From an uncultured Ignavibacteriaceae bacterium (GTDB lineage Bacteria; Bacteroidota; Ignavibacteria; UBA10030): 64,000 bases of DNA. This document shows, in pieces, positions 26,083 through 61,727 of the stretch (position 1 is its first letter; each line of letters starts with the position of its first letter). Below the pieces are notes generated by a model. It was not told the origin of the DNA. It worked only from the letters and a program-made list of their open reading frames with translations, and did not search any database. The stretch spans positions 4,572-68,571 of the forward strand of contig CAYZRX010000008.1 in assembly GCA_964480945.1 (NCBI GenBank). The letters run 5' to 3'. The translations under genes were made by a program, and so were the position numbers.

Positions 26083-26793
26083 ATGCGCTTAGCAATCAAC
26101 ATCGATCACATTGCCACACTCCGAAACGCCCGCGGCGGATCGGAGCCGGATCCTGTCGAGGCAGCTGGGGTTTGCGAAGCCGCGGGTGCACTCGGTATCG
26201 TCTGTCATTTGCGGGAGGATCGCCGCCACATCCGCGATGCCGATGTGCACCTCCTGCGAAAGACGATCAAGACGAAGCTCGATCTCGAGATGGCCGCAAC
26301 CGACGAAATCATCAAGATCGCGATCGAGGTGAAACCGGCCTTCGTCACACTGGTTCCCGAGCGGCGCCGGGAGCTGACGACGGAGGACGGACTGGATGTG
26401 AAGGCAAACAAAGCTCACCTTGAGGAGACGATTGGGACGTTTCATCGGCACGGCATCAAGGTCAGTCTCTTCATTAATCCGGTTCAGGAACAGATCGAGC
26501 TCTCGAAATCGATCGGCTCCGATATGATTGAGATTCACACCGGGGAGTATGCCGAGGCGCGCGACGAACAGGAACGTCAGAACCAACTCGCGCGCGTTCA
26601 GCACGCGGCCCGAAGCGCCAAGTCGCTCGGCCTGGACGTCCACGCCGGTCACGGGCTCAACTATGGGAACGTCACTCCGATCGCCGCAATCCAGGAGATC
26701 GACGAATTGAGCATCGGTTACGCCATCGTTGCGCGCGCGATGTTCGTCGGCTTGGATCAGGCGGTACGAGAAATGCTCCGCCTCGTCCACTAA
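26083..26793 (+). CDS. pdxJ: Pyridoxine 5'-phosphate synthase
   Basis: MRLAINIDHIATLRNARGGSEPDPV...CHLREDRRHI is the PdxJ signature. Confidence 0.9.
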   Translation: MRLAINIDHIATLRNARGGSEPDPVEAAGVCEAAGALGIVCHLREDRRHIRDADVHLLRKTIKTKLDLEMAATDEIIKIAIEVKPAFVTLVPERRRELTTEDGLDVKANKAHLEETIGTFHRHGIKVSLFINPVQEQIELSKSIGSDMIEIHTGEYAEARDEQERQNQLARVQHAARSAKSLGLDVHAGHGLNYGNVTPIAAIQEIDELSIGYAIVARAMFVGLDQAVREMLRLVH

Positions 26794-26839
26794 TTTCTCT
26801 GAAGCACATCGGGAAGCGAATGATCCCGGGGAGGTACTC

Positions 26840-29260: not shown

Positions 29261-29303
29261 CGCCACTTTTACGGCATTCTGCCTGACAAGGGAGGATTTC
29301 ACA

Positions 29304-30764
29304 ATGACGAACGCACGCACTCTATTCATTTTCCTCTTCCTTTTCCCCCTCGCGGCGCTTTCCCAGGTTGGGTTCCCGCCGTTCACCAACGACTTTCCCC
29401 CGGAAGAGTTCGCTCAGCGGCGCGGCGGGGTTTATGATGCCATCGGGATCGGCGCCGTCGCACTCGTGCAGGGCGCGCCGAGCCCCACCGCCTACGTCCG
29501 GTTCCGACAATCCAATGAATTCTATTATCTCTGCGGCATCGAGGTCCCCCACGCGTACCTTCTCCTCGACGGTACCCAGAGGCGCGCCGCCCTGTACCTC
29601 CCCCATCGAAACCAAGGTCGAGAGCGAAGCGAGGGCAAGCTACTCTCCGCTGAGGATGAGGCGCTCATCAATCAGCTTTCCGGCATCGACGCGGTTTACG
29701 GCCTTGATCTTCTCGCTGAACACCTCGGCCGCCTCGCAAGAAACAGCTCCGTGAAAAGCCTGTATACGCCGTTCAGTCCGGCCGAGGGCTTCGCGACCAG
29801 CCGAGACCTCGCCGTGCGCTCCAACAATGACGTGATGGCCGATCCCTTCGACGGGCAGGCCTCCCGGGAAGATCGGCTTGTACAGCTTCTTCACTTGCGA
29901 TTTCCGCAGTTTGAAGTACGTGACCTCTCTCCGATACTGGACAACCTGCGGTTGATCAAGAGCCCGCGCGAGATCGCGTTGATCAAGAAGGCGACGATCC
30001 TCTCCGGCCTGGCATTGATGGAATGTATGCGCTCGACGAAGCCGGGTATCATGGAGTACGAGCTCGACGCAGCGGCAAAATACATCTACTATCGACACGG
30101 CGCACAGGGAGAAGCCTATTTCTCCATCGTCGCAAGCGGCCCGAACGCTCTCCTCGGGCACTACCACGCAGGCAAGCGACGGATGGAGGACGGGGACCTT
30201 GTGCTGATGGATTTCGCTCCCGACTTCGGCTACTATATGAGCGACCTAACGCGCACGTGGCCCGTAAACGGGAAGTTCAGCGCTTCACAGCGTGAACTGT
30301 TCGTGTTCTACACCAGCTGCTACCGCGCGATCCTCAAGGCAATCCGGCCCGGTGCGACCGCTCAGGCCATTCTGCAGGATGCGGTGAAAGAAATGGATGG
30401 AATTCTGACCGGAACGAAGTTCTCCAAGCCGTCTTACGAGAAAGCCGCGAACTCCTTCGTCAGCGGTTTTCGAGCATCGGCGAGAAACCCGCGGGCCAGG
30501 TTAGGCCATTGGGTCGGCATGGCCACCCACGATGACGGGGAGGACAGCGGACCACTTCGGGCCGGCATGGTCTTCACCATAGAACCCGCGTTCAGCATTC
30601 CGGAGGAGCAAATCAACATCCGATTCGAGGACCTCATCGTGATTGGAGAGAGACGCGCCGAGATCCTCTCCGATTTTGTGCCCCTGGACGTCGATAGCAT
30701 CGAGAAACTCATGCGCGAGCCTGGCTTGCTCCAACGCTATCCGCGCTCAGAGATGATGAAGTAA
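29304..30764 (+). CDS. Xaa-Pro aminopeptidase (M24B), secreted
   Basis: ATG at 29304 after GGAGG; signal peptide present. M24 metal-ligand regions (VLMDFAPDFGYYMSDLTRTWP, HWVGMATHD, FTIEPAF). Confidence 0.8.
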   Translation: MTNARTLFIFLFLFPLAALSQVGFPPFTNDFPPEEFAQRRGGVYDAIGIGAVALVQGAPSPTAYVRFRQSNEFYYLCGIEVPHAYLLLDGTQRRAALYLPHRNQGRERSEGKLLSAEDEALINQLSGIDAVYGLDLLAEHLGRLARNSSVKSLYTPFSPAEGFATSRDLAVRSNNDVMADPFDGQASREDRLVQLLHLRFPQFEVRDLSPILDNLRLIKSPREIALIKKATILSGLALMECMRSTKPGIMEYELDAAAKYIYYRHGAQGEAYFSIVASGPNALLGHYHAGKRRMEDGDLVLMDFAPDFGYYMSDLTRTWPVNGKFSASQRELFVFYTSCYRAILKAIRPGATAQAILQDAVKEMDGILTGTKFSKPSYEKAANSFVSGFRASARNPRARLGHWVGMATHDDGEDSGPLRAGMVFTIEPAFSIPEEQINIRFEDLIVIGERRAEILSDFVPLDVDSIEKLMREPGLLQRYPRSEMMK

Positions 30765-31244: not shown

Positions 31245-31736
31245 ATGAACACCGGTCAGACGCTTCTTACCATCGTGGCGATCGTGTTGCTGGGATCGAA
31301 CGTCGTCAGCGTCAACAGAACGTTCGCGCAACATGGCGTCATCCTTCAGCAGACGGAGATCGGAATTTTCGGGATCTCTCTCGGGATGTCCATCATCGAA
31401 GAATCTCAGGGCAAAGCATTCGATCAGGCGACCGTGGACAGCGTAGCGGCGACGGTCAACGATTTGAGCACGACCCTGGGGCGAGAGTCCGGCGAGATAG
31501 CGCGGACCGACTTCAACGACTTCGATGACTACAACGGCTGGCGTGACACGATGTACGTGCAGGGTGTGGATCGGTTCAGGCGATGGGCTACCGTATGCTA
31601 CGTCGACACATCGAACCTGGACGGCTCCTCCGCCAACCGAACGTGGCATAAGAAGCTTACGGTCTACGTGAAAGCCGACAACTCGCAAGATACGGTCAAG
31701 ATGTCCTACATTTTCAGCTACTGGTCATTCCGGTGA
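31245..31736 (+). CDS. Cassette 1 gene A: small N-terminally anchored pseudopilin-like protein (GspI/PilV-like candidate)
   Basis: 163 aa starting MNTGQTLLTIVAIVLLGSNVVSV (short polar leader plus one hydrophobic helix). RBS AAGGAGAG. Paralog of 34098-34592; the N-terminal 60 aa are about 90% identical and the C-terminal SYIFSYWSFR is conserved. Confidence 0.6.
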   Translation: MNTGQTLLTIVAIVLLGSNVVSVNRTFAQHGVILQQTEIGIFGISLGMSIIEESQGKAFDQATVDSVAATVNDLSTTLGRESGEIARTDFNDFDDYNGWRDTMYVQGVDRFRRWATVCYVDTSNLDGSSANRTWHKKLTVYVKADNSQDTVKMSYIFSYWSFR

Positions 31737-31745
31737 GGTGACATC

Positions 31746-32393
31746 ATGGGTGCTAGCACAATATTCGACATTGTGAGCTCAACGGTCGTGGGCTCTCTTC
31801 TCCTGCTGATGGCCCTGCGGCTCAATGCGCAGGCGGTGGAGACGAACGCCGTCTACCAGAACAACCTCAACCTTCAGCAAAGCATCGTTGCTTTGGTGGA
31901 TGTGGTCGAATCCGATTTTCGCAAAATCGGCTACTGCAAGGATTTCCACAAGATTCAGCCCCCGAACATTGCCATCGTTTCCGCTGATTCCAATGCCATC
32001 AAGTTCATGACGGACGTTCCGAGCAGCCCGGGTGATATGGGCGACGGCGTGGTGGACACAATCGAGTACTACCTGGGACCGACCAGTGAGCTTGCAAGCA
32101 CGCCCAACCCGGATGATCGATATCTGTACCGCATCGTCGACGGAAACAAGGGGAAAGGCTGGAACCTGGGTGTGACGCAGTTCAGCTTGAGGTACTACGA
32201 TGCGCTTGGCGATACGATTCCTTTCCCGGTCCCGGATCCCAGGCTCATCTACACAATGGAAGTCAATATCTCTCTGGAGAGTCCGGCACCGCTGTTGAAA
32301 TCAGAATACACCTCGGCGGCCGCGGACTCGGCAGACTACAAAGTGTACTGGCGGCAGATTCGCCTGGCATCACGAAATCTTCGAAACCGTTAA
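31746..32393 (+). CDS. Cassette 1 gene B: pseudopilin-like protein (GspJ/PilW-like candidate)
   Basis: 215 aa with an N-terminal hydrophobic helix (IFDIVSSTVVGSLLLLMAL). About 90% identical to its paralog 34597-35244. Starts 9 bp after gene A, so operonic. Confidence 0.6.
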   Translation: MGASTIFDIVSSTVVGSLLLLMALRLNAQAVETNAVYQNNLNLQQSIVALVDVVESDFRKIGYCKDFHKIQPPNIAIVSADSNAIKFMTDVPSSPGDMGDGVVDTIEYYLGPTSELASTPNPDDRYLYRIVDGNKGKGWNLGVTQFSLRYYDALGDTIPFPVPDPRLIYTMEVNISLESPAPLLKSEYTSAAADSADYKVYWRQIRLASRNLRNR

Positions 32394-32408
32394 GGAGGGA
32401 GGCTCGTC

Positions 32409-33623
32409 ATGGGTAAAGCATCGCTTTTGATGGTCATCGGGTTCAGCACTGCTCTGTTGATGATCGGCTCGAACATCTCCAAAGTCTCCAACAGCGCTAT
32501 GGACAATTATCTGTCCTACTACAGATCCAGCATGGCACACGACATTGCCGCCGCAGGGACAAATATGGCCGCCCGAGCGCTCTGGGAGAACATGGCTTGG
32601 AAAGCTGGCTTTGGACGCAAGTCGTTCATGGGCGGAACTTTCCAGTCAACGGTCACCGACCTCGGCATGAACCAGGTCAAAGTTGTAACTACGTCGACGT
32701 ACATGGATGAGACCTCTGTAATCTCCGTGATTCTGCAACCGAGCAGTTTTTCCCGGTTCGGCTACTACAGCGTCCAGGAAGGCAACATCTTCTGGATCAC
32801 CGGCGATACGGTGTGGGGACCGATGCACACGCAGGACAACTTTCATGTCTCCGGCGACCCTGTTTTCATGCAGCGAGTGACATCGCTGAAGGGTCTGCAG
32901 AAGAACAACAAATCCGACCATCCGCAGTTCCTGGGCGGCTACGAGAGCGGGGTCAACGTCTCGCTCCCTTCGAATCTGACTCCACTCGTGAATGCTGCCG
33001 GCAATGGCGGGAAGCTCTTCACCGGCGGCGACTCCGTCTGCATACAGTTTCAGTCGAACGGCAACGTGAAGTGGAAACAGGGCGCGACCAATGGGTGGAA
33101 TACCGACCCACTCTCGAGTTTCGCGCCGAATGGTGTCATCTACGTGCAAGGTGCAAATATGCACGTCTCCGGCACGCTGTCAGGCAGAGTGACCGTCGGG
33201 GCCGGTGGAACAAATGGCAACAGCAAACAAGGCAATATCTACATTGATGATGATGTAAAGCTGAATTCCAATCCACAACAAGGTTCGTCTTCGGACATGC
33301 TGGGACTGGTAGCTGAGAACGATGTGATCATTACGGACAACGTTGCCAACAAGAAAGACGTGGTAATCCAGGCTTCAGTGTTTTCCCGAAGCGGCAGTTT
33401 TGAAGCGGAGAACTACGACAAGCGTGCTGTGTCCGGCACGATCCAGCTTCTGGGAGGAATAATACAAAGCCAAAGGGGCCCCGTCGGGACTTTCAGCGGC
33501 AACCCGCCAAAACTCGTAAGTGGATATCTGAAGAACTATATGTACGACACCCGGTTCCTGTACGATGCGCCACCCTATTTCCCCACCACGGGAAACTTCG
33601 AGATCGTCTCTTGGTTTGAGTAG
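32409..33623 (+). CDS. Cassette 1 gene C: PilX_N/GspK-like N-terminal domain protein with beta-helix-like body (candidate tip/adhesin subunit)
   Basis: 404 aa; N-terminus MGKASLLMVIGFSTALLMIGSNISK...SSMAHDIAAAGTNMAARAL resembles the PilX N-terminal domain architecture (TM helix, then an A..AA.AG helix). Repeated GD..G / I.I.DN segments suggest a parallel beta-helix. Strong RBS AAGGAGGGAGG. Confidence 0.55.
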   Translation: MGKASLLMVIGFSTALLMIGSNISKVSNSAMDNYLSYYRSSMAHDIAAAGTNMAARALWENMAWKAGFGRKSFMGGTFQSTVTDLGMNQVKVVTTSTYMDETSVISVILQPSSFSRFGYYSVQEGNIFWITGDTVWGPMHTQDNFHVSGDPVFMQRVTSLKGLQKNNKSDHPQFLGGYESGVNVSLPSNLTPLVNAAGNGGKLFTGGDSVCIQFQSNGNVKWKQGATNGWNTDPLSSFAPNGVIYVQGANMHVSGTLSGRVTVGAGGTNGNSKQGNIYIDDDVKLNSNPQQGSSSDMLGLVAENDVIITDNVANKKDVVIQASVFSRSGSFEAENYDKRAVSGTIQLLGGIIQSQRGPVGTFSGNPPKLVSGYLKNYMYDTRFLYDAPPYFPTTGNFEIVSWFE

Positions 33624-34097: not shown

Positions 34098-34592
34098 ATG
34101 AACACCGGCCAAACGCTCCTCACCATTATCGCCATTGTGCTTCTGGGTTCGAACGTCGTTAGCATCAACAGGACGTTTGCGCAGCACGGCGTGATCCTCC
34201 AACAAACGGAGATCGGCATCTTCGGCATCTCGCTCGGCATGTCGATCGTCGAGGAGGCCCAGGGTAGAGCGTTCGACGAGAACACGATCGACAGCCTTGC
34301 CCAGACTACGAATCAGCTCAGCTCAGCGCTCGGCCGGGAATCCGGTGAAACAACACTCCACACCGGCTTCGACGATTTCGATGATTATAACAGTTGGAGC
34401 GATTCCGTCTCCGTGCCGGGCGTTGACATCTTCAAACGATGGGCCACCGTTGTCTATGTAGACTCCACCAATCTCGACGGCACAGCGAGTGGACGGAGGT
34501 GGAGCAAGAGGCTGGATGTCTTCGTAAAAGGCACCAGCTCCCAGGACACGATGAAGCTCTCCTACATATTCAGTTACTGGTCATTCAGGTGA
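34098..34592 (+). CDS. Cassette 2 gene A: small pseudopilin-like protein (paralog of 31245-31736)
   Basis: 164 aa; MNTGQTLLTIIAIVLLGSNVVSI...; RBS GAGGGAGG. The central region has diverged from its paralog while the termini are conserved. Confidence 0.6.
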   Translation: MNTGQTLLTIIAIVLLGSNVVSINRTFAQHGVILQQTEIGIFGISLGMSIVEEAQGRAFDENTIDSLAQTTNQLSSALGRESGETTLHTGFDDFDDYNSWSDSVSVPGVDIFKRWATVVYVDSTNLDGTASGRRWSKRLDVFVKGTSSQDTMKLSYIFSYWSFR

Positions 34593-34596
34593 CGCC

Positions 34597-35244
34597 ATGG
34601 GTGCTAGCACAATCTTTGATATCGTCAGTGCGACTGTCGTCGGCTCGCTGCTTCTTCTGATGGCACTGCGGCTCAACGCACAGGCCGTCGAAACGAATGC
34701 CGTGTACCAGAACAATCTGAACCTTCAGCAGAACATCGTGGCGTTAGTCGACGTTGTGGAATCGGACTTCCGGAAGATCGGCTACTGCCGAGACTACACG
34801 AGAATTCAACCGCCGAACAGCGCCATCATCAGCGCCGATTCGAACTCTATCAAGTTCCTCACCGATATTCCGAGCAGCCCGGGTGATATGGGTGATGGCG
34901 TTGTCGACACGGTCTATTACTACCTCGGACCGACCAGCGAGCTTGCGAGCACGCCCAACCCAGACGACCGATATCTGTACCGGATCGTCAATGGAAACAC
35001 TGCGAAGGGCTGGAACCTCGGTGTCACACAGTTTAGCCTGAAGTACTATGATGCGCTGGGGGACACGATCCCATTTCCTATCCCCGACCCCCGATTGATC
35101 TACACGATGGAAATCAACATCTCACTCGAAAGCCCCGCGCCCCTGACGAGGATCGAATATACAACGGCGGCTGCGGACTCGGCGGATTTCCGGGTGTACT
35201 GGCGGCAGATTCGCCTCGCCTCACGCAATTTGCGGAACCGATAA
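34597..35244 (+). CDS. Cassette 2 gene B: pseudopilin-like protein (paralog of 31746-32393)
   Basis: 215 aa, about 90% identical to the cassette 1 homolog. Confidence 0.6.
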   Translation: MGASTIFDIVSATVVGSLLLLMALRLNAQAVETNAVYQNNLNLQQNIVALVDVVESDFRKIGYCRDYTRIQPPNSAIISADSNSIKFLTDIPSSPGDMGDGVVDTVYYYLGPTSELASTPNPDDRYLYRIVNGNTAKGWNLGVTQFSLKYYDALGDTIPFPIPDPRLIYTMEINISLESPAPLTRIEYTTAAADSADFRVYWRQIRLASRNLRNR

Positions 35245-35259
35245 GGAGAGGAGCATACC

Positions 35260-36495
35260 ATGGGTAAAGCGGCGCTTATTATGGTCATGGGATTCAGCAC
35301 GGCACTGCTGATGATCGGGTCCAATATCTCCAAGATCTCGAATCGGGCGATGGACAATTACGTCCACTACTACAATTCCAGCATGGCGCATAACGTCGCC
35401 GCAGCGGGCACCAACATGGCTGCTCGAGCGCTCTGGGAAAATTTCGCCTGGCAAGCCGGGTTCTCCAACAAGAAGTTTGCCGGCGGCACATTCAACACCA
35501 CCGTGACGACCGCCGGTGTCAACCAAATCCGGCTGACAACGACCTCGACATTCCAGGGTGAGACGGCAACCATCTCCGTGCTGCTCCAGCCCAGCAGTTT
35601 CTCACGTTTCGGCTACTACAGCAATATCGAAGGAAACATCTGGTGGATCACGGGGGACACGGTGTGGGGACCCATGCACACGCAGGACAACCTCCGCGTC
35701 TCAGGCGAGCCGGTGTTCATGCAAAGGACCACCTCGCTCAAGAGCATCATCTACGACCACGGGCCTCCCCCAAGGGACAATCCCAAGTTCCTGGGAGGAT
35801 ACGAAACCGGAGTAAATGTGAGCCTGCCGTCCGATCTCACCCCTTTGCTGACAGCGGCGAACAATGGCGGAAAAGTGTTCAACGGTCCGGACTCCGTCTA
35901 TATTGAGTTTCAGTCGAACGGAAACGTGAAATGGAAGCAGGGAGCTGCCTCCCCGTGGAGTGTCGACCCCCTCTCAACGTTTGCCCCGAACGGGGTCATC
36001 TATGCCAACGGGACGAACGTCCACGTCAGCGGGACGATAAGCGGGAGAGCGACCCTCGGTGCTGGAGGAACGACCGGCAACAACAAGCGCGGCAATATCT
36101 TCATCGACGATGATATCTTCTATGCACATGACCCCGGCGCAGGGTCTTCCACCGATCTGTTGGGGCTCGTCGCGGAAAACAATATCCTCATCTCGGACAA
36201 TTCCGCCAATAACAACAATGATGTTACGATTCAAGCATCGTGTTTCTCCCGTTCAGGCGGTTTCACGGCGGAGGATTACGGCAGCCGCGGTGTGGAGGGG
36301 CGAATCAAGCTCCTTGGTGGAATCCAACAGAACAAAAGAGGCGCGGTTGGAACCTTCGACACCGACAGACACGGCGACCCATATCTGAAGAACGGTTATC
36401 TGAAGAATTATCTCTATGATAGTCGGCTTATGTACGACGCACCCCCGTTCTTCCCGACAACCGGCAACTATGAGATCATCTCATGGTTTGAATAA
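35260..36495 (+). CDS. Cassette 2 gene C: PilX_N/GspK-like N-terminal domain protein with beta-helix-like body (paralog of 32409-33623)
   Basis: 411 aa, about 70-75% identical to the cassette 1 homolog. The same N-terminal A..AAAGTNMAARALWEN motif and C-terminal ...EI.SWFE. Confidence 0.55.
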   Translation: MGKAALIMVMGFSTALLMIGSNISKISNRAMDNYVHYYNSSMAHNVAAAGTNMAARALWENFAWQAGFSNKKFAGGTFNTTVTTAGVNQIRLTTTSTFQGETATISVLLQPSSFSRFGYYSNIEGNIWWITGDTVWGPMHTQDNLRVSGEPVFMQRTTSLKSIIYDHGPPPRDNPKFLGGYETGVNVSLPSDLTPLLTAANNGGKVFNGPDSVYIEFQSNGNVKWKQGAASPWSVDPLSTFAPNGVIYANGTNVHVSGTISGRATLGAGGTTGNNKRGNIFIDDDIFYAHDPGAGSSTDLLGLVAENNILISDNSANNNNDVTIQASCFSRSGGFTAEDYGSRGVEGRIKLLGGIQQNKRGAVGTFDTDRHGDPYLKNGYLKNYLYDSRLMYDAPPFFPTTGNYEIISWFE

Positions 36496-38269: not shown

Positions 38270-39586
38270 GTGCTTGATGGGACAATGAGTTACGAGAATT
38301 TCAACTTCATCTACCTATCGGAGATCGTCGGGCTGCCGGTGTTCAGCCTCAGCAGCGGCAAGAGAATCGGTCGTATCATCGACCTCGCCGCGCGGACCAG
38401 CCACGTCTATCCGAAGATCACGGCCCTCATCACCAAGCTGAGGGACAAGAAGGTTCCCGTCTATATTCCGTGGAACAGCGTCCGGCTTACGGCTTTGAAG
38501 CGGCATGTTTCCGTTGAATACCCGCCGGAGTCCGACTACGGCGACGTCCACTCGATCGAAAACGAGATCCTCATCAAGGAAACGTTTCTGGACAAGCAGA
38601 TCATCTCGACGTCGGGCTACAAGCTTGTCCGCGTGAACGATCTTCAATTGCTCATCGATAATTCGTCCAAGGAGAATCCGAACCTCTGGCTGGTCCATAT
38701 CGATATCGGATTCAAGGGACTGCTGAGACGGCTCGGTTGGGCCAACGTCGCCAACGGCATCTTCCGGTGGGTCGTTTCCCGAGACATCAACGACAAGTTT
38801 GTAGCGTGGAAGCACGTTCAACCGACGACGACGACGAACGTCTACGGCTCCGTCCACCTCAAGACGGATACGTCGAAGCTCTCAACGTTTCACCCGGCCG
38901 ACCTTGCAGACATTCTCGAGGACCTCGGGACCGACGAACGCATCTCGCTCTTTGAATCGTTCAACCCGAGCCTCGCTGCCACGACCCTCCAGGAAATGCC
39001 GATGAATGTCCGCGTCCAGATCGCGGAGACGTTAGAAACGGAAAAGCTGGCAGCCATCATCAACGAGATGCAAATGGACGAGGCGGTCGACTTGCTGGAC
39101 GAGCTCTCCCTCGAAAAGCGCACGGCGGTTTACGCTGTGATGACGACCGAGAAGGTTTCAGAGATCAAGGAGCTTTCCAGGCTCTCCATCTACAGCGTCG
39201 GCAGCATTATGAACACAAACTTCATCACTGCGAAGGCCGCCCAGACTGTGCGGGAGGTGCTCAAAGCGGTCAAAGCCGAGAGCAAGAAGGCGGAGCTGCT
39301 CCACTACGTGTACATCATCGACGATGAGGAACACCTCAAGGGGCTGGTCACGCTGAGGCAACTGTTGATTACGAAGGGGACCACCCCCATGGCCTCAATC
39401 ATGCGCGGCAACCTCATCTCCGTTCGAGTCGACACCGGCATCAAACACGTGGCCCAGTTGTTCTTCAAATACAATTTTCGAGCACTGCCCGTTGTGGACG
39501 AAGAGGAACGGATTCGGGGGATCATCTCCATGCGGGACGCCCTCGAATCGATCTTCCCCGAAATGAAGCAAGCATCCGAGGGATAG
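38270..39586 (+). CDS. Soluble MgtE N-terminal domain + tandem CBS domain protein (no membrane domain), with N-terminal PRC-barrel-like region
   Basis: 438 aa; MgtE_N region (ADLADILEDLGTDERISLFESF...LQEMP) and a CBS pair (IMNTNFITAKAAQTVREV...YVYIIDDEEHLKGLVTLRQLL...ALPVVDEEERIRGIISMRD). The ORF ends without TM helices, 2 bp before the next gene. Confidence 0.75.
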   Translation: MLDGTMSYENFNFIYLSEIVGLPVFSLSSGKRIGRIIDLAARTSHVYPKITALITKLRDKKVPVYIPWNSVRLTALKRHVSVEYPPESDYGDVHSIENEILIKETFLDKQIISTSGYKLVRVNDLQLLIDNSSKENPNLWLVHIDIGFKGLLRRLGWANVANGIFRWVVSRDINDKFVAWKHVQPTTTTNVYGSVHLKTDTSKLSTFHPADLADILEDLGTDERISLFESFNPSLAATTLQEMPMNVRVQIAETLETEKLAAIINEMQMDEAVDLLDELSLEKRTAVYAVMTTEKVSEIKELSRLSIYSVGSIMNTNFITAKAAQTVREVLKAVKAESKKAELLHYVYIIDDEEHLKGLVTLRQLLITKGTTPMASIMRGNLISVRVDTGIKHVAQLFFKYNFRALPVVDEEERIRGIISMRDALESIFPEMKQASEG

Positions 39587-39587
39587 C

Positions 39588-40844
39588 ATGAGGTTGCTTC
39601 AAAGACTGAAAGAACATCCGGCTCTTCGGAATCTGTTGATCTTCCTGAGCGTCGTCGGTCCGGGCATCATCACGGGGAGCGTCGACAACGACGCAGGCGG
39701 AATTACGACGTATTCGGTGGCAGGAGCACTCTACGGCTATAGACTCCTGTGGACGCTGATCCCGTCGTTCGTTGTGTTGCTGGCCGTTCAGGAGATGAAC
39801 GCCCGTATGGGGATTGTCACGGGCAAAGGGCTGGCGGACCTGATTCGAGAGAACTTTGGGGCCCGGATTACGTTCTACATCTTCATTTGCCTGCTCATCG
39901 CGGATGTCGGCAACACGGCGACCGAGTTTGCCGGCGTCGCGGGCAGCATGATGGTGCTCGGTGTCAGCAAGTACGTTTCCGTTCCGCTCGCTGCGATCGC
40001 CGTCTGGATTCTCGTCGTCAAGGGAAACTACAAAATAGCAGAAAAAGTCTTTCTCCTCTTGAGCGTTTTTCTGCTTTCCTACGTTGTCTCGGCTGTCCTG
40101 GCAAAGCCCGACTGGGGAGACATCGGTGTCGCGTTGATCTCGCCGACCATCGAGTGGGATCATACCTATTTCATTACCGTTCTGGGGCTGGTGGGTACGA
40201 CCGTCGCTCCATGGATGCAGTTCTACATGCAATCTTCCGTGATCGAGAAGGGTATCAAGATTGGCGATTACAAGTTCACGGTGTGGGACGTTGCGATCGG
40301 CTGCATCGCAACGATCGTTGTCGCTTTCTTCATCATCGTTGCCTGCGGGGCCACGCTCCACACCAACAATGTCACGATCACGGAAGCCAAGGATGCTGCG
40401 TTCGCGCTCAAGCCGTTTGCCGGAGCCCTCGCATCCGAGGTCTTCGCATTCGGCTTGTTCGCCGCCTCCATCTTCTCCGCCGCGATCCTGCCGCTGGCAA
40501 TGGCTTTTTACATTTGTGAAGCATTCGGATTTGAAGCGGGGATCGACAAGAAATTCGCCGAGGCGCCGCAATTCTACACGCTCTTCACCCTGACCATCGT
40601 CATCAGCGTGACGGTTATTCTTCTTCCTAACGCGCCGCTGATCGCCATTACCATCTGGACCCAAGTGTTGAACGCGATCCTTCTGCCCATTGTCCTCGTT
40701 TGCATGATGATCATCGTGAACAAGACGGAGATCATGGGTGAGTACACGAACAAGCGGTATCAAAACATCATCGGCTGGTCGACGTCGATCCTATTGATCA
40801 TCATGAGCGCCGTCCTAGTAATCTCAGGCTTTGGCCCGGGGTAA
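39588..40844 (+). CDS. NRAMP (SLC11) family transporter with non-canonical metal-site residues (NRMT-like; candidate Mg2+ transporter)
   Basis: 418 aa with about 11 TM helices. TM1 motif DAGG where canonical MntH has DPGN; TM6 motif GTTVAPW where canonical has GA.IMPH, so both the Asn and the Met are lost. Confidence 0.8.
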   Translation: MRLLQRLKEHPALRNLLIFLSVVGPGIITGSVDNDAGGITTYSVAGALYGYRLLWTLIPSFVVLLAVQEMNARMGIVTGKGLADLIRENFGARITFYIFICLLIADVGNTATEFAGVAGSMMVLGVSKYVSVPLAAIAVWILVVKGNYKIAEKVFLLLSVFLLSYVVSAVLAKPDWGDIGVALISPTIEWDHTYFITVLGLVGTTVAPWMQFYMQSSVIEKGIKIGDYKFTVWDVAIGCIATIVVAFFIIVACGATLHTNNVTITEAKDAAFALKPFAGALASEVFAFGLFAASIFSAAILPLAMAFYICEAFGFEAGIDKKFAEAPQFYTLFTLTIVISVTVILLPNAPLIAITIWTQVLNAILLPIVLVCMMIIVNKTEIMGEYTNKRYQNIIGWSTSILLIIMSAVLVISGFGPG

Positions 40845-41742: not shown

Positions 41743-42039
41743 TCACATCTTATCTTGCACGCTCTTCATTTTTTCTTCCATCGTCTGGTCACGATCTGTT
41801 CTCGTGCCGAACTTCAGCGTGCTCGAGATCCTCGGCGCCCCCATGCCGTGGATGATCTCATGGCATCGTTTGACCGCGGCAAAGACTTCATCCCATTCCC
41901 CTTCGATGTTGGTGCCGTACGCGTGGAGGTGGAATTTCAAACCCGCCTCTTGAAAAATCTTCTCGCACGCAGCGATGTAACGCGAGACGGACACTCCAAC
42001 ACCTATCGGAATGACACAAAGATCGGCGATGACCTTCAT
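41743..42039 (-). CDS. MTH1187/YkoF family thiamine-binding protein
   Basis: 98 aa; MKVIADLCVIPIGVG.SVS.YIAAC matches the DUF77/MTH1187 ferredoxin-like fold. Confidence 0.7.
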   Translation of the reverse strand: MKVIADLCVIPIGVGVSVSRYIAACEKIFQEAGLKFHLHAYGTNIEGEWDEVFAAVKRCHEIIHGMGAPRISSTLKFGTRTDRDQTMEEKMKSVQDKM

Positions 42040-42289
42040 AGCTGATTCTCCTTTCGCAAGAGCATCTCTCCGTGGAAGTTGACAATTTGACGGTACAATA
42101 TCAAACTTCGAGATGCTGTCATCGATTTCCTGGTTTTGGCAACGCGGGTTTGCAACAAAAGGAACTCTTTGCTACACTGCTCAGTAAAATCTGCGGGAGG
42201 TTCTTCAGGGAAAATCCGGAGCCTTTTTGTTATCCTCTCGGTGGAGAGAGAACTGAAGCGACTCCGCCGGGGTGCCCCCAGCGTTGGAT

Positions 42290-42544
42290 ATGGAAAAACC
42301 GCACTGTCCAAACTACGATGTCTGTCTGCTCGTGCAGACCCCAAATATCCTCTGCGATCCGCAACGAAGGGAGTTCTACCTCGACCGTTACTGCCTTCGG
42401 GGCAGCGATGCTTGGGAAGCGTGCAAGCGCTACATTGCGAAGAACGTCCTGAATTTTTGTCCCGATTTTGTTTTGCCCGATTCTCCCCTTTCACCTTCTG
42501 AGATCATCGACGAATTCGATCGCCTCTCGAATGGCGATCAGTAG
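42290..42544 (+). CDS. Hypothetical small cysteine-rich protein
   Basis: About 85 aa from the internal Met (MEKPHCPNYDVC...LCDPQ...YCLRG...AC...FCPDF) with 7 Cys. No recognised domain. The frame and start are uncertain and it overlaps another frame's ORF. Confidence 0.3.
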   Translation: MEKPHCPNYDVCLLVQTPNILCDPQRREFYLDRYCLRGSDAWEACKRYIAKNVLNFCPDFVLPDSPLSPSEIIDEFDRLSNGDQ

Positions 42545-42562
42545 ATCAGCGAGGAAGTAAGC

Positions 42563-42880
42563 ATGCCAACAATGGAAATTGATGGAAGGACATTTGAAGT
42601 AGATGGCGACGGTTTCTTATCAGATCCTTCTCTTTGGAATGAGGAAGTTGCCCGGTTGATAGCAAGACACGACGGCATTACGGAGATGAGTGACAAACAC
42701 TGGGCGATCGTGAAGTTCATCCGCAAGAACTGGGAGGAAAAGGGGATGGCACCGATGATCCGTTCGATCTGTCAGGTGACTGGAGTGAAGCTCAAGGAGA
42801 TTTATCAGCTTTTCCCCCTTGGTCCTGCACGCGGCGCGTGCCGTGTCGCAGGCCTGCCCAAGCCCGATGGTTGCGTCTAA
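42563..42880 (+). CDS. dsrC: DsrC/TusE family sulfur-relay protein (two-cysteine DsrC type)
   Basis: 105 aa; the C-terminal arm LFPLGPARGACRVAGLPKPDGCV matches the DsrC consensus (LFPxGPAKxACRIAGLPKPTGCV). It has both the penultimate Cys and the Cys 10 residues upstream. Confidence 0.85.
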   Translation: MPTMEIDGRTFEVDGDGFLSDPSLWNEEVARLIARHDGITEMSDKHWAIVKFIRKNWEEKGMAPMIRSICQVTGVKLKEIYQLFPLGPARGACRVAGLPKPDGCV

Positions 42881-42895
42881 GGGAGTCGGATCGGA

Positions 42896-43516
42896 ATGAC
42901 CTGGTACCACTCTCTGGCATCAGCTGCCCTCGTTGTCTGCCTGATAAGCCTGTCGTATCATTTCATCAGACTTCTCAGGTTGGGGCCGCCAAAGGATTTC
43001 TCCGTACGGAGAGGCAACTTGAAACCCGCGATCATCTATTCGTTCCTGGGAGCGATGAACCCGCGGAAGAAGGAATCTGCATACTTGCACCTCCCGACCT
43101 ATGCAGCGGGGCTTTTCTATCACGCCGGGACCTTCACCTCGATCGTCCTTTTCTTTCTGTTCTTTTTCAATTTCCACATTGAGAGATCGTTACGGTGGGG
43201 CATTATCAGTTTGCTGGCGGTATCAGGAGCCTGCGGCATCGGGATCCTCGCGAAGAGAACGGCGGTGAGAAGGCTCCGGCACCTCTCCAACCTCGATGAC
43301 TATGTAGCAAACATCCTCGTGACACTTTTCCAGTTCCTTACCCTTGCTTTGTTGGTGAAGGAAGTATTTGCTCCATTCTATTTCCTCTGCGTCAGCCTCC
43401 TGTTGCTGTATCTCCCGTTCGGGAAGCTGAAACATGCTCTCTATTTCTTCGCCGCGCGGTATCACCTTGGACTGTTCTACGGTTGGCGCGGGGTCTGGCC
43501 TCTCAGAAAGTCGTGA
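42896..43516 (+). CDS. Integral membrane protein, candidate HdrE/DsrM/NarI-like di-haem cytochrome b anchor
   Basis: 206 aa with about five hydrophobic helices and His residues within them (SYHFIRLL, LFYHAGTF, FFNFHIERS, KHALYFFAARYHLG). Sits 10 bp upstream of the HdrD-like gene. The assignment rests on context and topology only. Confidence 0.4.
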   Translation: MTWYHSLASAALVVCLISLSYHFIRLLRLGPPKDFSVRRGNLKPAIIYSFLGAMNPRKKESAYLHLPTYAAGLFYHAGTFTSIVLFFLFFFNFHIERSLRWGIISLLAVSGACGIGILAKRTAVRRLRHLSNLDDYVANILVTLFQFLTLALLVKEVFAPFYFLCVSLLLLYLPFGKLKHALYFFAARYHLGLFYGWRGVWPLRKS

Positions 43517-43525
43517 ACGAACGGT

Positions 43526-44818
43526 ATGGCCAGTCTTTCCACAGAAAAGCTCAGAGCGCTCCAAGTCCTGGCGGAAGTGAAGGACAGCCGGCTGGTATCG
43601 CACCTCAACAGCTGTGTTCACTGTGGATTGTGTGCAGAGAGCTGCATGTACTACGTTGCGACGAACGATGAACGGTTTGCCCCGGCGCTGAAAGTCGACC
43701 TTCTCTCTTCCATTTATCAGCGGTACTACACGTTCGCGGGCAAGCACTTTCCGCTCCTTGGGAACGCACGCGATCTCGATAACTTCACAACGAGCGAAAT
43801 GGTGGATCTCTTCTTCGGCTCCTGCACACTCTGCGGGCGATGCACGACGCATTGCTCCATCGGTGTCGATATCACGTACCTGGTACGAGTAGGAAGGGAG
43901 ATGCTTGCAGCCATGGGACGCGTTCCGGCGAGCCTGCAATCGACCGTCAACGCCGCCCTTCAGACGGGCAACAACATGGCCATCCCAACCGAGGAGTTTA
44001 CGAGCACGCTGTCGTGGCTGGAGGACGAGCTCAAGGATGAGGTGAACGATCCCCAGGCGTCCATACCGCTCAACCAAGTTGGTGCAAACGTCCTCTACAC
44101 ATTGAATCCGCGGGAGCCCAAGTTTTTCCCGCTTTCCATCTCCGCCATGGCGAAGATATTCTATGCCGCCAACGAGAGCTGGACGCTCTCGACGTCGATG
44201 TATGATGTCACCAACTATGCGTACTTCTCCTGCAACCCCAAGGATGCGATCACCATCGCCAAGCGGTTGTACGAGGAGGTCGAAAGAATCGGCGCGAAAC
44301 GCTGCGTGCTTGCGGAATGCGGCCACGGATCGAGAGCCTTTCGCTGGGAAGCGCCAAACTACCTTCAGAAGCGGTTTTCTTTCGAAACCCTGACTTCCGT
44401 CGAACTCCTGGCTGAATACATCCGCGAGGGCCGGATCAAGCTTGACAAAGAAAGAAATCGGGAGGTGATGACGCTGCACGATCCCTGTAACCTCGTGAGA
44501 GAGGGGGGCATCGTTGACGAACAACGATACGTTTTGAAGCACGCAGCGACCACGTTCGTTGAAATGACGCCGCATGGAGTCGACAACTTCTGCTGCGGTG
44601 GGGGCGGCGGCCAGCTCTCGATGAGCGAATACGGCGATCGACGCATGAAGATCGCCGAGATCAAGGCAGACCAGATCCGGAAGACGGGCGCTTCGACGGT
44701 CGTAACGCCTTGCCACAACTGCGTCGACCAGTTGATCCAGATCAATAACAAATTCAAGCTCGGCGTGAACATCAAGACGCTTGCTGAAGTCGTCGCCGAT
44801 GCAATCGTACTAGAATAG
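43526..44818 (+). CDS. HdrD/DsrK/GlpC-like iron-sulfur protein (2x[4Fe-4S] ferredoxin + two CCG domains)
   Basis: Two ferredoxin-like motifs, CVHCGLCAESC and CTLCGRCTTHC. C-terminal CCG domains: CVLAECGHG in the first; NFCCGGGGGQ...PCHNCVDQ in the second. Confidence 0.8.
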   Translation: MASLSTEKLRALQVLAEVKDSRLVSHLNSCVHCGLCAESCMYYVATNDERFAPALKVDLLSSIYQRYYTFAGKHFPLLGNARDLDNFTTSEMVDLFFGSCTLCGRCTTHCSIGVDITYLVRVGREMLAAMGRVPASLQSTVNAALQTGNNMAIPTEEFTSTLSWLEDELKDEVNDPQASIPLNQVGANVLYTLNPREPKFFPLSISAMAKIFYAANESWTLSTSMYDVTNYAYFSCNPKDAITIAKRLYEEVERIGAKRCVLAECGHGSRAFRWEAPNYLQKRFSFETLTSVELLAEYIREGRIKLDKERNREVMTLHDPCNLVREGGIVDEQRYVLKHAATTFVEMTPHGVDNFCCGGGGGQLSMSEYGDRRMKIAEIKADQIRKTGASTVVTPCHNCVDQLIQINNKFKLGVNIKTLAEVVADAIVLE

Positions 44819-44857
44819 TTCATCGTCAACCCATCAGACACACTGCGAATACGAGCC

Positions 44858-46021
44858 ATGAGTGCATTAGTCTACCTTGACAACTCCGCGACAACGTTTC
44901 CCAAGCCCGAGGCGGTGTACGACTTCATGAATAGTTTCTACCGCAAGCACGGTGTTAACCCGGGTCGATCGGGATTTGATGCCGCACTGGAAGCGGAAGA
45001 GATCGTGATGAACACACGGAAACTGCTGGCAGACTTCTTCCATGCCGAGGGTGACCCAAACAGGTTGACCTTCAGTTATAACGCCAGCGATTCGCTGAAC
45101 ATGATCATCCAGGGCCTGGCAGAGAAGGGCGATCACGTCGTCACGACCATGCTGGAACATAATTCGGTCCTGCGTCCGCTCCATCACCTTCAGCTGAACG
45201 GCCTCGTCGAAGTCACCCATGTTCCATTTGACGACCATGGATATGTTCACCCCGACGACATCAAGCATGCCCTCCGCAAGAACACCAAGATGGTGGTGGT
45301 CAACCATTGCTCCAATGTCATTGGTACCATCCAGCCGCTTGCCGAGATCGGCAAGATCTGTAAACAGGCCGGCGTCTTTTTCATCGTCGATACCACTCAG
45401 AGCGCCGGGACCGTGCCGATCGACATGCAAGCGATGGGGATCGATGTGGTTGCCTTCACCGGGCACAAATGCCTCATGGGACCAACCGGCATCGGCGGCT
45501 CGTATGTCATGGAGAACGTACCGGTGAAGTACACCCGGTTCGGCGGCACGGGAGTACGTTCTGCGCAACAGACCCATCTCGAAGAATTTCCCTACCGCCT
45601 GGAGTGCGGCACGCTCAACCTGCTCGGCGTCGCAGGCTTGAACGCAGGAGTGAAGTGGGTGCTCGAGAACGGGGTAGATCGTTTGCACGCCAAGGAGATG
45701 GCGTTGTGGGACAAACTCCGGAAGCACCTTCAGGCCATCGAGAACGTCAAGACGTATTGTGCGGAAAGCACGCAAAATCATAATGCGGTACTGTGCTTCA
45801 ACATCAAGAACTTCGAAGCCGGAGACGTCGGCACCATGCTCGACGTCGATCATAACATCGCCTGCCGCACGGGTCTGCACTGCGCGCCGAAAGTGCATGT
45901 AGGGCTGGGCACCGACAAAATTCACGGCACGGTGCGACTCAGCATTGGCGCCTTCAACACCGAGGAACACATCGACAAAGCCGTTGAGGCGGTGAAGGAA
46001 ATAGCCGAGATCAGAAAGTAA
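44858..46021 (+). CDS. Cysteine desulfurase family protein (class V aminotransferase fold, PLP)
   Basis: 387 aa; N-terminus VYLDNSATTFPKPEAVYDFM and PLP-lysine region VDVVAFTGHKCLMGPTGIGG. Resembles the NifS/CsdA-related 'cysteine desulfurase family protein' subfamily. Confidence 0.8.
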   Translation: MSALVYLDNSATTFPKPEAVYDFMNSFYRKHGVNPGRSGFDAALEAEEIVMNTRKLLADFFHAEGDPNRLTFSYNASDSLNMIIQGLAEKGDHVVTTMLEHNSVLRPLHHLQLNGLVEVTHVPFDDHGYVHPDDIKHALRKNTKMVVVNHCSNVIGTIQPLAEIGKICKQAGVFFIVDTTQSAGTVPIDMQAMGIDVVAFTGHKCLMGPTGIGGSYVMENVPVKYTRFGGTGVRSAQQTHLEEFPYRLECGTLNLLGVAGLNAGVKWVLENGVDRLHAKEMALWDKLRKHLQAIENVKTYCAESTQNHNAVLCFNIKNFEAGDVGTMLDVDHNIACRTGLHCAPKVHVGLGTDKIHGTVRLSIGAFNTEEHIDKAVEAVKEIAEIRK

Positions 46022-46403: not shown

Positions 46404-47915
46404 ATGTCAGTCGCGAAAGTAGCGCCGGAACGTCCTCAGCGCGAGGATCTTGAAGACTATTTTGGTCCGTTCCGCCAGCATATTGTCGGACACCATTATC
46501 CTGTCCGAACGCCTTATGGAGAGAAGGAGTTAGTCTACGCCGACTGGATTGCCAGCGGACGTTTGTATCGCCCGATCGAGGAACGGCTGCTCAGCGAGTT
46601 CGGACCGCTGGTCGGGAACACGCACTCCGAGTCGAGCAGTACCGGCTCCGCAATGACCCACGCCTACCACCTCGCACACCAGATTATCAAGAGGCACGTC
46701 CACGCAGGTCCGCAGGACGCGCTCCTCTTCGCCGGATTTGGAATGACCGCTGCGGTCACGAAGCTACAGCGTCTGCTCGGCCTCAAAGTTCCCGAACAAT
46801 TCAAGGACTACTTCACGCTCCCTGAAGAGCTTCGGCCGGTTGTTTTCGTGACCCATATGGAGCACCACTCCAATCAGACAACGTGGTATGAGACTCTCGC
46901 CGACGTTCACGTGATCAAGCCCGATGCCAATGGGTTGATTGATATCGATGATCTCTACGCCCTGCTCGGCCGGTACAAAGACAGAAAGTTGAAGATCGGG
47001 TCCTTCATCGCCTGCTCCAATGTAACGGGCATTCAGACACCGTACCATCAGCTCGCGCGCATCATGCATGAGCACGGGGGGATTTGTTTCATCGACTTCG
47101 CAGCCTCCGCCCCCTATGTCGATATTGACATGCATCCCGCCAATCCTCTCGAGCGCCTCGATGCCATCACGTTCTCGCCGCATAAGTTTCTCGGCGGACC
47201 CGGAGCATCGGGAGTACTCGTGTTTGACTCGAGCCTCTATACGCTCAAATCGCCGGAGCAGCCGGGAGGCGGCACCGTGCTCTGGACGAACCCCTGGGGC
47301 GAGTATCGGTTTTTCCCAGACATCGAAGTACGCGAGGATGGCGGGACACCTGGGTTTCTCCAAGCGATTCGGGCGGCGATGGCTGTCGAGCTGAAAGAAG
47401 AGATGGATCCGCAGAAGATGCTGGAGCGGGAACACCGATCGGTTTTGAAGACTCTCCGTGGGCTGCGCGAGATTCCCGGCCTCACGGTCCTCGCTGACAA
47501 CATCGAAGACCGGCTCGGCGCCATTTCGCTCTATCTCGAGAACATTCACTACAATCTTGTCGTGAAGCTGTTGAACGACCGGTTCGGGATTCAGACGCGC
47601 GGAGGGTGCTCGTGTGCCGGGACGTATGGACATTACCTGCTTCATGTCGACAAGTACGCATCGAAACGGATCACGGATAAGATCGATGAGGGGGATCTTT
47701 CGATCAAGCCGGGATGGGTGCGCCTCTCGCTTCATCCAACGACGACGGATGAGGAGATCGACTACATTCTTGATGCTGTGCGCGAGATCGGACGAAACGC
47801 GAAGCAGTGGGAGCGTGACTACACCTACGATCCTCACACCAACGAGTACACACACAAGCTCGATCGAGGCGAGCTACGACAGAAGGTTCAGGGGTGGTTC
47901 AGGTTCGAGTCTTAA
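46404..47915 (+). CDS. Aminotransferase class V-fold PLP-dependent enzyme (about 500-aa cysteine desulfurase/selenocysteine lyase-like)
   Basis: 503 aa; PLP-lysine motif ITFSPHKFLGGPGASGVLVFD, then a longer C-terminal extension than NifS-like proteins have. Confidence 0.7.
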   Translation: MSVAKVAPERPQREDLEDYFGPFRQHIVGHHYPVRTPYGEKELVYADWIASGRLYRPIEERLLSEFGPLVGNTHSESSSTGSAMTHAYHLAHQIIKRHVHAGPQDALLFAGFGMTAAVTKLQRLLGLKVPEQFKDYFTLPEELRPVVFVTHMEHHSNQTTWYETLADVHVIKPDANGLIDIDDLYALLGRYKDRKLKIGSFIACSNVTGIQTPYHQLARIMHEHGGICFIDFAASAPYVDIDMHPANPLERLDAITFSPHKFLGGPGASGVLVFDSSLYTLKSPEQPGGGTVLWTNPWGEYRFFPDIEVREDGGTPGFLQAIRAAMAVELKEEMDPQKMLEREHRSVLKTLRGLREIPGLTVLADNIEDRLGAISLYLENIHYNLVVKLLNDRFGIQTRGGCSCAGTYGHYLLHVDKYASKRITDKIDEGDLSIKPGWVRLSLHPTTTDEEIDYILDAVREIGRNAKQWERDYTYDPHTNEYTHKLDRGELRQKVQGWFRFES

Positions 47916-59125: not shown

Positions 59126-59231
59126 TTAGCTCGTCAGATGTTTGTTTGAATCGTTGAATTCCACTCACGTTTTCTTTACCTTTTTTATCACTCTCCTGAA
59201 CCCCTTCATCAACCACGAGGAGCAACAATCC

Positions 59232-61625: not shown

Positions 61626-61727
61626 ATCGGGCGATCGAGCCATCGAACCATTTCAAGGCGAGTCACATGCCGATGAGAAGATACGTCGATGAATCAAGAG
61701 TTTGAGTTTTCTCACGGGAGGCTTTCC

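Follow-up and report, generated by a model that had tools for sequence, protein, structure and literature searches.

A DsrC gene cluster beside a cysteine desulfurase

We analysed a 64,000-nucleotide stretch (the window) of contig CAYZRX010000008.1, from an uncultured Ignavibacteriaceae bacterium, in which a gene for DsrC lies within a compact cluster on the forward strand. Five genes of this strand are near-contiguous, with operon-like gaps of 18, 15, 9 and 39 bp, and encode a small cysteine-rich protein of ~84 aa with no family match (42290..42544), a two-cysteine DsrC of 105 aa (42563..42880), a membrane anchor resembling NarI, DsrM and HmcE (206 aa, 42896..43516), an HdrD/DsrK-type iron-sulfur (Fe-S) protein with Pfam CCG and Fer4_8 domains (430 aa, 43526..44818) and a group-II cysteine desulfurase of the TIGR01977/EF2568 family (387 aa, 44858..46021). 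A sixth gene, encoding a second class-V pyridoxal phosphate (PLP) enzyme of 503 aa (46404..47915; Aminotran_5, 136 bits), follows on the same strand after a gap of 382 bp. A preliminary description of this DNA had named a DsrC, a membrane protein, an HdrD-like protein and desulfurases, and every one of these was found where it had been placed. The interval given there, 42272-46021, encloses the core genes; the second Aminotran_5 gene lies beyond its end, and its first position belongs to the cysteine-rich open reading frame (ORF), which the description had left unmentioned. That ORF was called mechanically from a GTG at 42272, and its probable start is the ATG at 42290. We refer to the recurring unit of dsrC, membrane, HdrD-like and desulfurase genes as the module.

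The DsrC of the cluster scored 121.4 bits against PF04358 (cut-off 24.9) and 102.5 bits against TIGR03342 (cut-off 53.5). Its C-terminal arm (...GACRVAGLPKPDGCV) ends in ACRVAGLPKPDGCV, an arrangement of the form CysB-X10-CysA in which CysA is the penultimate residue. CysB is C93 and CysA is C104 (GAC93RVAGLPKPDGC104V), and both, together with C70, are invariant among 74 homologues. The best relatives in the PDB are true DsrCs (1ji8, 109 bits; 2xsj_C, 106 bits; 2v4j_C, 101 bits; 1yx3, 91 bits), compared with 39 bits for the 'Sulfurtransferase' chain of 7syb, which we take to be of the TusE type, and the TusE equivalog NF008562 gave 69.2 bits where its cut-off is 191. A TusE identity was rejected on the combined strength of the invariant CysB, this TusE score and the kinship with true DsrCs at 100-110 bits, and the earlier assignment of the gene to the two-cysteine DsrCs, outside TusE, is upheld. 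The published DsrC motif used by DiSCo is AGLPKPTG(not N)C, with one mismatch tolerated (PMC8477390); the protein conforms to it as AGLPKPDGC, the single mismatch being T to D. This exchange of KPTGC for KPDGC is invariant across the module family and common to its sister clade, and the ending KPDGCV appears to act as a signature of the module.

Three related loci carry a second DsrC-family gene without CysB, beside a DsrE-like gene and a few kilobases from the module (L035, 2255-3063; L043, 1251-2020; L051, 11459-12212). These single-cysteine, TusE-like paralogues end in KPASCI or KPSSCV, and the TusE-like and DsrE-like pair probably constitutes a tRNA-thiolation set of the tusBCDE type. The presence of a separate TusE-like paralogue in some Bacteroidales loci implies that the module DsrC is not the TusE of the organism.

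The membrane protein matched no Pfam family (PF02665 was silent), gave only weak NCBIfam matches (HmcE, 27 bits; TmcC, 23 bits) and retrieved nothing meaningful in a sequence search of the PDB. Its five helices, noted in the preliminary description, were recovered in an AlphaFold2 (AF2) model built from an alignment of 54 homologues (pLDDT 86.9), and in a Foldseek search of the PDB the top eight matches of this model were all NarI (probability ~1.0 and TM ~0.5, though E was only ~0.1), followed by matches of probability 0.38 or less. Alignment with a DsrM by hhalign gave E = 0.0016, and the distribution of Lys and Arg residues indicates an N-out/C-in topology, as in NarI. The di-haem pattern against which we read its histidines consists of four axial ligands, two in transmembrane helix 2 (TM2; i, i+10) and two in TM5 (i, i+18). 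All four, so spaced, are present in the reference DsrM from L084, the sole locus of the metagenome scan with a true DsrK, which served as DsrM reference only. L084 (4232-6867) is a low-GC metagenome contig with a compact dsrM-dsrK pair and a DsrJ-like gene with three CXXCH motifs on the opposite strand.

H76 and H180 of the membrane subunit are 100% conserved in the family and kept in the sister clade, as is H65 (96% in the family); H22 (97%) is lost there. H180 (LYLPFGKLKH180) aligns with H205 of NarI (LFPFSRLIH205) and with YFPFSKLVH of DsrM, and H76 aligns with NarI H56, F86 occupying the position of NarI H66 (MAFFT alignment, in which the register of TM2 is less secure than that of TM5). 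The distal ligand position of TM5, 18 residues before H180, is Y162 here and F or W in the sister clade. The haem-ligand pattern that had been anticipated is thus half present: the proximal pair (H76, H180) is there and the distal pair (F86, Y162) is absent. With only the cytoplasm-side ligands kept, a transmembrane redox loop across two haems of the NarI/DsrM type is probably not formed, and the pattern of conserved histidines suggests that the subunit is probably a mono-haem b anchor.

The HdrD-like protein contains two CX2CX2CX3C [4Fe-4S] motifs and a CCG motif (CXnCCGXmCXXC). The ferredoxin-type cysteines (C30/33/36/40 and C100/103/106/110), C265 and the CCG cysteines C321, C356, C357, C396 and C399 are all invariant among 77 sequences. 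The two [4Fe-4S] motifs of the preliminary description therefore stand, but its plural 'CCG domains' does not, as Pfam recognizes a single canonical CCG domain (residues 316-403) and the N-terminal CCG-like region has one invariant Cys left. Scores against NCBIfam models were 287 bits for TmcB (NF045724, cut-off 735), 284 for HmcF (NF045711, cut-off 750) and 250.4 for DsrK (NF045796, cut-off 400), compared with 25-41 bits for GlpC models, 45 for GlcF and 20 for LutB/LldF. A GlpC/LutA identity was rejected on this difference (20-45 against 250-287 bits), with LutB/LldF as the only Lut model compared, and both the scores and the tree place the protein with DsrK, HmcF and TmcB.

The tree, a rough distance tree built by neighbour joining with 300 bootstrap replicates, was read with the aid of 30 cluster representatives labelled by NCBIfam (true DsrK, P0135 and P0145; true HmcF, P0167; near-TmcB, P0156). 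The module, DsrK and HmcF/TmcB clades received 100%, 100% and 99% bootstrap support, respectively, and the module together with its sister 49%; the module fell within neither the DsrK nor the HmcF/TmcB clade. Pairwise identity was 35-37% to DsrK (P0135, P0145) and 30-33% to HmcF and TmcB. These comparisons suggest that, within the DsrK/HmcF/TmcB superclade, the Fe-S subunit forms a clade of its own, and we presume this subunit to be the cytoplasmic reductase of a DsrC disulfide or trisulfide. Some relatives of the HdrD-like protein are fusions: P0124 (587 aa) has a C-terminal receiver domain of the DVU0259/DivK-like kind, and P0126 (670 aa) an N-terminal extension of ~240 aa.

The 387-aa enzyme matched Aminotran_5 with 298 bits and TIGR01977 with 437 bits (cut-off 377). 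H203-K204 and C342, the latter within RTGLHCAP, which follows the group-II consensus RXGXHCA, are invariant among 70 desulfurase sequences, and its closest matches in the PDB are to cysteine desulfurases (5b7s, SufS); we presume the enzyme to be a persulfide donor. The 503-aa enzyme is more remote, with an SPHK lysine, a GGCSCAG motif and terminal extensions, 114 bits against the SufS subfamily (cut-off 475) and a best PDB match, again SufS, of ~90 bits. K261, C402 and C404 are invariant in 16 sequences. Its gene lies 3' of the cluster here and directly 5' of it in many Bacteroidales, and we regard the product as a divergent class-V PLP enzyme, a distant relative of SufS and an accessory partner of the module. 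The small cysteine-rich protein has five invariant cysteines (C12, C18, C41, C51 and C63; 38 sequences) and an FCPDFVLPD motif. It matched no Pfam family, a profile search of the PDB returned only a spurious S21 match, and its single-sequence AF2 model was poor (pLDDT 59.7). On the reverse strand, a 152-aa ORF at 42036-42494 overlaps the cysteine-rich gene and the intergenic region upstream of it; this antisense ORF is most likely spurious because the forward-strand ORF is the one conserved across loci.

Conservation of the module in other genomes

Scanning one genome per species, we collected 210 relatives of the HdrD-like protein and studied the best 80 loci, which come from metagenome-assembled genomes (MAGs) of Ignavibacteria and Bacteroidales and share 64-82% identity in that protein; homologues with names likewise mark the window as DNA of an Ignavibacteria-type genome. 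The window proteins were compared with these loci by tblastn, and gene order was counted only where the contig extends far enough. The membrane gene lies 5' of the HdrD-like gene in 77 of 77 loci, the DsrC gene does so in 72 of 72, and a TIGR01977 desulfurase follows directly 3' in 71 of 72, at a median gap of 44 bp. The cysteine-rich gene, which opens the cluster as an accessory member, is found just 5' of dsrC in 38 of 70 loci and the 503-aa PLP enzyme within the flanks in 14 of 53, so that of the two desulfurases put forward earlier as partners the first is constant and the second accessory only. Clustering of all flanking ORFs produced no other shared family in more than 8 of the ~80 loci, which marks the unit as self-contained. 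The arrangement is far beyond chance, because the same order recurs in ~80 species genomes and in a sister clade of 50% identity. A single locus (L050, 7266-10476) has no desulfurase after the HdrD-like gene, and in another (L024, 5350-5958) the match to the membrane gene is broken into three parts, a sign of a frameshift or of faulty assembly.

That sister clade is the nearest cluster outside the module family (P0121, 50% identity in the HdrD-like protein), and its members bear the names Zixibacteria, Aminicenantes and Eisenbacteria. Three of its loci (Zixibacteria, Aminicenantes and one further assembly) have the HdrD-like gene together with genes for DsrC and a ~210-aa membrane protein, and in all three an Aminotran_5 gene stands immediately 3' of the HdrD-like gene on the opposite strand. 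The products of these inverted genes are 58-60% identical to the window desulfurase, which identifies them as its orthologues, and an adjacency that outlasts inversion gives good support to a link in function.

Four Bacteroidales loci (L030, L032, L033 and L034; positions 8627-12754 in L030) have four extra genes 3' of the desulfurase. These encode a DsrE-like protein (PF13686), a TusA-family protein with a CPGP motif that matches TusA (3lvj_C and 1dcj), an MvhD-like protein that matches 5odc_D and a 928-aa fusion of HdrA with NfnB/GltD. TusA and DsrE are classic persulfide carriers feeding DsrC-family proteins. In these four lineages, the HdrA/MvhD pair suggests that electrons also enter by a second, soluble route, and the HdrA-NfnB/GltD extension may be linked to NAD(P)H or ferredoxin and is possibly bifurcating. 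The preliminary description's link between desulfurase and DsrC is therefore strongly backed, both by a neighbourhood conserved across several phyla and by the joining of TusA and DsrE in the four loci.

Eight Bacteroidales loci place a regulator of the Crp/FNR family (cNMP-binding and HTH_Crp_2 domains) divergently 5' of the cluster (reverse strand, 2121-2822 in L030), which makes this protein a candidate regulator. A k-mer search of 72 upstream regions revealed no shared operator, only AT-rich words and words resembling the Bacteroidetes -7 element, and a scan for sigma-70 promoters and terminators around the cluster in the window found promoters at chance level, plus a single weak terminator-like site 3' of the desulfurase gene. 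The membrane subunit comprises at least 1000 distinct clusters at 90% identity. An exact-sequence look-up found no record of the HdrD-like protein of the window, and a search of a plasmid collection gave one distant Methylovirgula match.

Genes of dissimilatory sulfur metabolism do not accompany the module. None of dsrAB, dsrDNJOPT, apr or sat occurs among the flanking ORFs of ~85 loci, and a Pfam survey of the window ORFs of at least ~160 aa detected no dsrAB, apr, sat, sox, tusA or dsrEFH, so that the earlier observation that dsrAB is not visible holds across the 64 kb. The neighbours of the module in a Kapaibacterium MAG are genes of a restriction system, and not dsr genes. The sister module is carried by the Zixibacteria genome TRIP_5 (L085; 3,508,505 bp, 99.94% complete), and in the culture from which this genome derives dissimilatory sulfate-reduction genes were found only in two Desulfatiglans genomes (PMC6849830).

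Proposed chemistry and its alternatives

We interpret the cluster as a self-contained, membrane-anchored sulfur-relay/reductase module that would work without DsrAB, and from the conserved sequence features and gene order we put the probability of this reading at about 0.5. The group-II desulfurase would take sulfur from L-cysteine, yielding alanine and a persulfide on C342, a conversion that is established chemistry for this enzyme family. The sulfane sulfur would then pass from C342 to the flexible C-terminal arm of DsrC, where CysA (C104) would receive it; we propose DsrC as the acceptor because group-II desulfurases normally need a dedicated one and the cluster offers no other candidate. 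In keeping with known DsrC chemistry, CysB (C93) would resolve the persulfide, so that H2S is set free and DsrC remains as a disulfide (or trisulfide). By analogy with DsrMK and HdrDE, the HdrD/DsrK-like subunit would reduce this oxidised DsrC at its CCG cluster, drawing on electrons that would run from menaquinol through the NarI-like haem b subunit and the two [4Fe-4S] clusters. The net reaction would be L-cysteine + 2[H] (from quinol) giving L-alanine + H2S.

Such a reaction could allow the quinone pool to unload electrons onto cysteine sulfur, or it could provide a controlled supply of sulfide; we lean towards the first. The idea in the preliminary description of a quinone-linked sulfur relay with DsrC, in place of classical sulfite reduction, is in this sense supported, the support coming from comparative genomics. 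We set aside an oxidative direction, like that of rDsr systems, since the loci encode nothing able to use up a DsrC trisulfide. More tentatively, and with appreciable doubt, the module might represent a DsrAB-independent, DsrC-based 'cysteine reductase' branch of respiration in anaerobes that do not reduce sulfate, namely members of the FCB group (Ignavibacteria, Bacteroidales and Zixibacteria) and Aminicenantes, in which a mono-haem complex may use quinol and in some lineages also NAD(P)H through the HdrA-Nfn/MvhD add-on.

Several points weigh against the proposed relay. That DsrC receives the sulfur, what donates the electrons and which way they flow are points that we infer from comparative genomics. 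The quinol link is the weakest step, because the membrane subunit is odd, having lost both distal haem ligands and showing no recognizable quinone site, and because the potential lies near equilibrium with menaquinol: from tabulated formation energies we estimate E0' for cysteine/alanine + H2S at about -0.1 V, slightly below menaquinone, which makes cysteine a usable sink for electrons derived from NADH or H2 and only marginally for those of menaquinol. The cysteine-rich protein and the second PLP enzyme are left unexplained by the scheme. SclA/EF2568, the sole TIGR01977 member to have been characterised, acts selectively on selenocysteine. Moreover, dsrAB has been found in five Ignavibacteria and two Zixibacteria MAGs, and in Candidatus Thermonerobacter the order dsrAB-D-N-hyp-L-dsrC-dsrM2-dsrK2 sets a dsrC-dsrM2-dsrK2 triad beside dsrAB.

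These last findings, together with the two-cysteine DsrC, the DsrK- and DsrM-like pair and the order dsrC-M-K of the window, are what would be expected if the genes were ordinary Dsr parts serving DsrAB or another sulfite reductase encoded elsewhere, with the desulfurase as a bystander. It is possible that dsrAB lies elsewhere in the source genome; nevertheless, we consider this explanation quite unlikely. The HdrD-like protein falls well below the DsrK cut-off (250 against 400) and outside a DsrK clade of 100% bootstrap support, the membrane subunit is missing the distal haem ligands of true DsrM, and every member has KPDGCV in place of KPTGCV. No dsrABDNJOPT gene is present in the ~85 loci or in the window, TRIP_5 has the module and reportedly no sulfate-reduction genes, and the host lineages are overwhelmingly non-sulfate-reducers. 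Nor does a bystander fit with an adjacency that survives inversion. In another explanation the desulfurase is a maturation factor that only supplies sulfur for building the clusters (Fe-S and CCG) in the HdrD-like protein, DsrC being the sole substrate and becoming oxidised by some unknown process. Desulfurases are sometimes encoded beside the Fe-S enzymes they mature, as is NifS, and the HdrD-like protein requires three clusters, but the module encodes no scaffold (NifU, IscU or SufBCD), no dedicated desulfurase accompanies the canonical dsrMK, hmc and tmc operons, and the source of oxidised DsrC would go unexplained; we give this explanation very little credence.

A relay serving biosynthesis, in which DsrC passes sulfur on to tRNA thiolation or to the assembly of molybdenum cofactor, thiamine or Fe-S clusters and the membrane/HdrD-like pair resets DsrC whenever it becomes oxidised, has a precedent in the IscS-TusA-TusBCD-TusE pathway of E. 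coli, where a desulfurase feeds a DsrC-family protein. The TusA- and DsrE-like genes appended in four loci accord with it, as do the TusE-like and DsrE-like pairs a few kilobases away in L035, L043 and L051. We nonetheless judge it unlikely: CysB is invariant and the C terminus is of the DsrC rather than the TusE type, some of the same loci possess separate single-cysteine TusE-like paralogues, no thiolation or cofactor-synthesis enzyme is conserved nearby, and a constant membrane redox partner is hard to justify for mere transfer. It is highly improbable that the system handles selenium, with the PLP enzyme acting as a selenocysteine lyase and DsrC-borne selenium (for example as a selenotrisulfide) being reduced to selenide by the HdrD-like protein. 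TIGR01977 does include the selenocysteine-selective SclA/EF2568, and two thiols vicinal in space can bind selenium, but the window desulfurase scored 314.6 bits against the SclA model NF040779, whose cut-off is 525, and has Asn at the position of SclA H100 (H101-N102). The neighbourhoods show no conserved selD, selA, yedE or yedF family, and trafficking of a trace element needs no membrane link to quinol.

The surrounding window, implications and related systems

Elsewhere in the 64 kb, the Pfam survey recorded many peptidases, an electron-transfer flavoprotein (ETF), a CysK-like PALP enzyme, URO-D and a sugar ABC transporter; no Rfam families (at gathering and E-value thresholds) and no tRNAs were detected. 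The peptidases (M28, S46, S9 in three copies, M14, S49, M24 and M48) are concentrated at 9723-15868, 22780-23982, 26729-30764 and 57926-63800, a density that points to a proteolytic, amino-acid-degrading lifestyle and with it a source of cysteine. The PALP-family enzyme (reverse strand, 6630-7577; 315 aa, 293 bits) is probably a cysteine synthase or a related beta-replacement enzyme. The ETF alpha subunit lies at 4670-5653 on the reverse strand, and an adjacent 193-aa ORF (4059-4640) may be the beta subunit. On the forward strand, an MgtE-N/CBS-domain gene directly precedes an Nramp transporter, with a gap of 1 bp (38270-40844), and this pair is also kept in the closest relative, L003. Also on the forward strand, a three-gene cassette is duplicated in tandem (31245-33623, encoding 163, 215 and 404 aa; 34098-36495, encoding 164, 215 and 411 aa), the paralogue pairs being 73%, 88% and 69% identical. 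Its proteins match no Pfam family except for a weak DUF4900 match, and the hydrophobic N-terminal segment in each of them suggests that they are pilin- or pseudopilin-like.

The presence of DsrC and DsrK-type proteins is taken to indicate dissimilatory sulfite reduction or sulfur oxidation, and DsrC matches in DsrAB-free genomes have been treated as false positives or paralogues (PMC8477390). Here, a well conserved and widespread DsrC/DsrMK-like unit is tied to a cysteine desulfurase in place of DsrAB. We found no description of this combination with a TIGR01977 desulfurase in the papers searched, though an earlier mention in reviews of DsrC is possible. Should the proposed relay prove correct, DsrC would have a function outside the Dsr pathway, the uncharacterised TIGR01977 desulfurases would gain a dedicated acceptor, and bacteria abundant in sediment, groundwater and digesters would possess a route from cysteine to sulfide that is possibly linked to energy conservation; the scoring of sulfur-cycle genes in metagenomes would be affected. 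Were the more doubtful 'cysteine reductase' branch to exist, cysteine sulfur would be a terminal electron acceptor and a source of sulfide so far uncounted in anoxic habitats.

Among known systems, DsrC with a minimal DsrMK, as in Gram-positive sulfate-reducing bacteria, resembles the module in its two-cysteine DsrC with a C-terminal arm, in the order dsrC-M-K, in the pairing of a membrane subunit of the NarI fold with a cytoplasmic protein bearing two [4Fe-4S] motifs and a CCG motif, and in the proposed chemistry, where electrons derived from the membrane would reduce oxidised DsrC. The module differs in having no DsrAB in the window or the loci, an Fe-S subunit only 35-37% identical to DsrK and below its cut-off, a 206-aa membrane subunit with the proximal His pair only, the KPDGCV ending and a constant desulfurase partner. 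HmcEF and TmcBC, of the Desulfovibrio Hmc and Tmc complexes, provide the best profile matches of the Fe-S subunit and the sole NCBIfam matches of the membrane subunit, which is of like size (profile lengths 218-226). However, the module scores far under the cut-offs of these families, its loci encode no periplasmic cytochrome c or other Hmc or Tmc subunits, and it branches outside the HmcF/TmcB clade (99% bootstrap).

The likeness to HdrDE of Methanosarcina is one of architecture only: a b-type cytochrome anchor is combined with HdrD, itself a fusion of HdrC and HdrB, for the reduction of a disulfide by electrons that a membrane carrier delivers. In the module, by contrast, the substrate would be a protein (DsrC) rather than CoM-S-S-CoB, the host is a bacterium using menaquinone, and there is one canonical CCG domain. 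The IscS-TusA-TusBCD-TusE relay of E. coli and the transfer from DsrEFH to DsrC in Allochromatium vinosum share with the proposed scheme the feeding of persulfide sulfur to a DsrC-family protein, and TusA- and DsrE-like genes also join the module in the four Bacteroidales loci. Yet TusE of E. coli has one cysteine and no redox partner, whereas the module has an invariant CysB and, in every case, a membrane reductase, and TusA and DsrE are absent from the module core, including that of the window. Finally, SufS-SufE, SufS-SufU and CsdA-CsdE likewise set a desulfurase of the RXGXHCA type beside a small, dedicated cysteine-bearing protein; in the module, which has no SUF scaffold genes, that acceptor would be DsrC.

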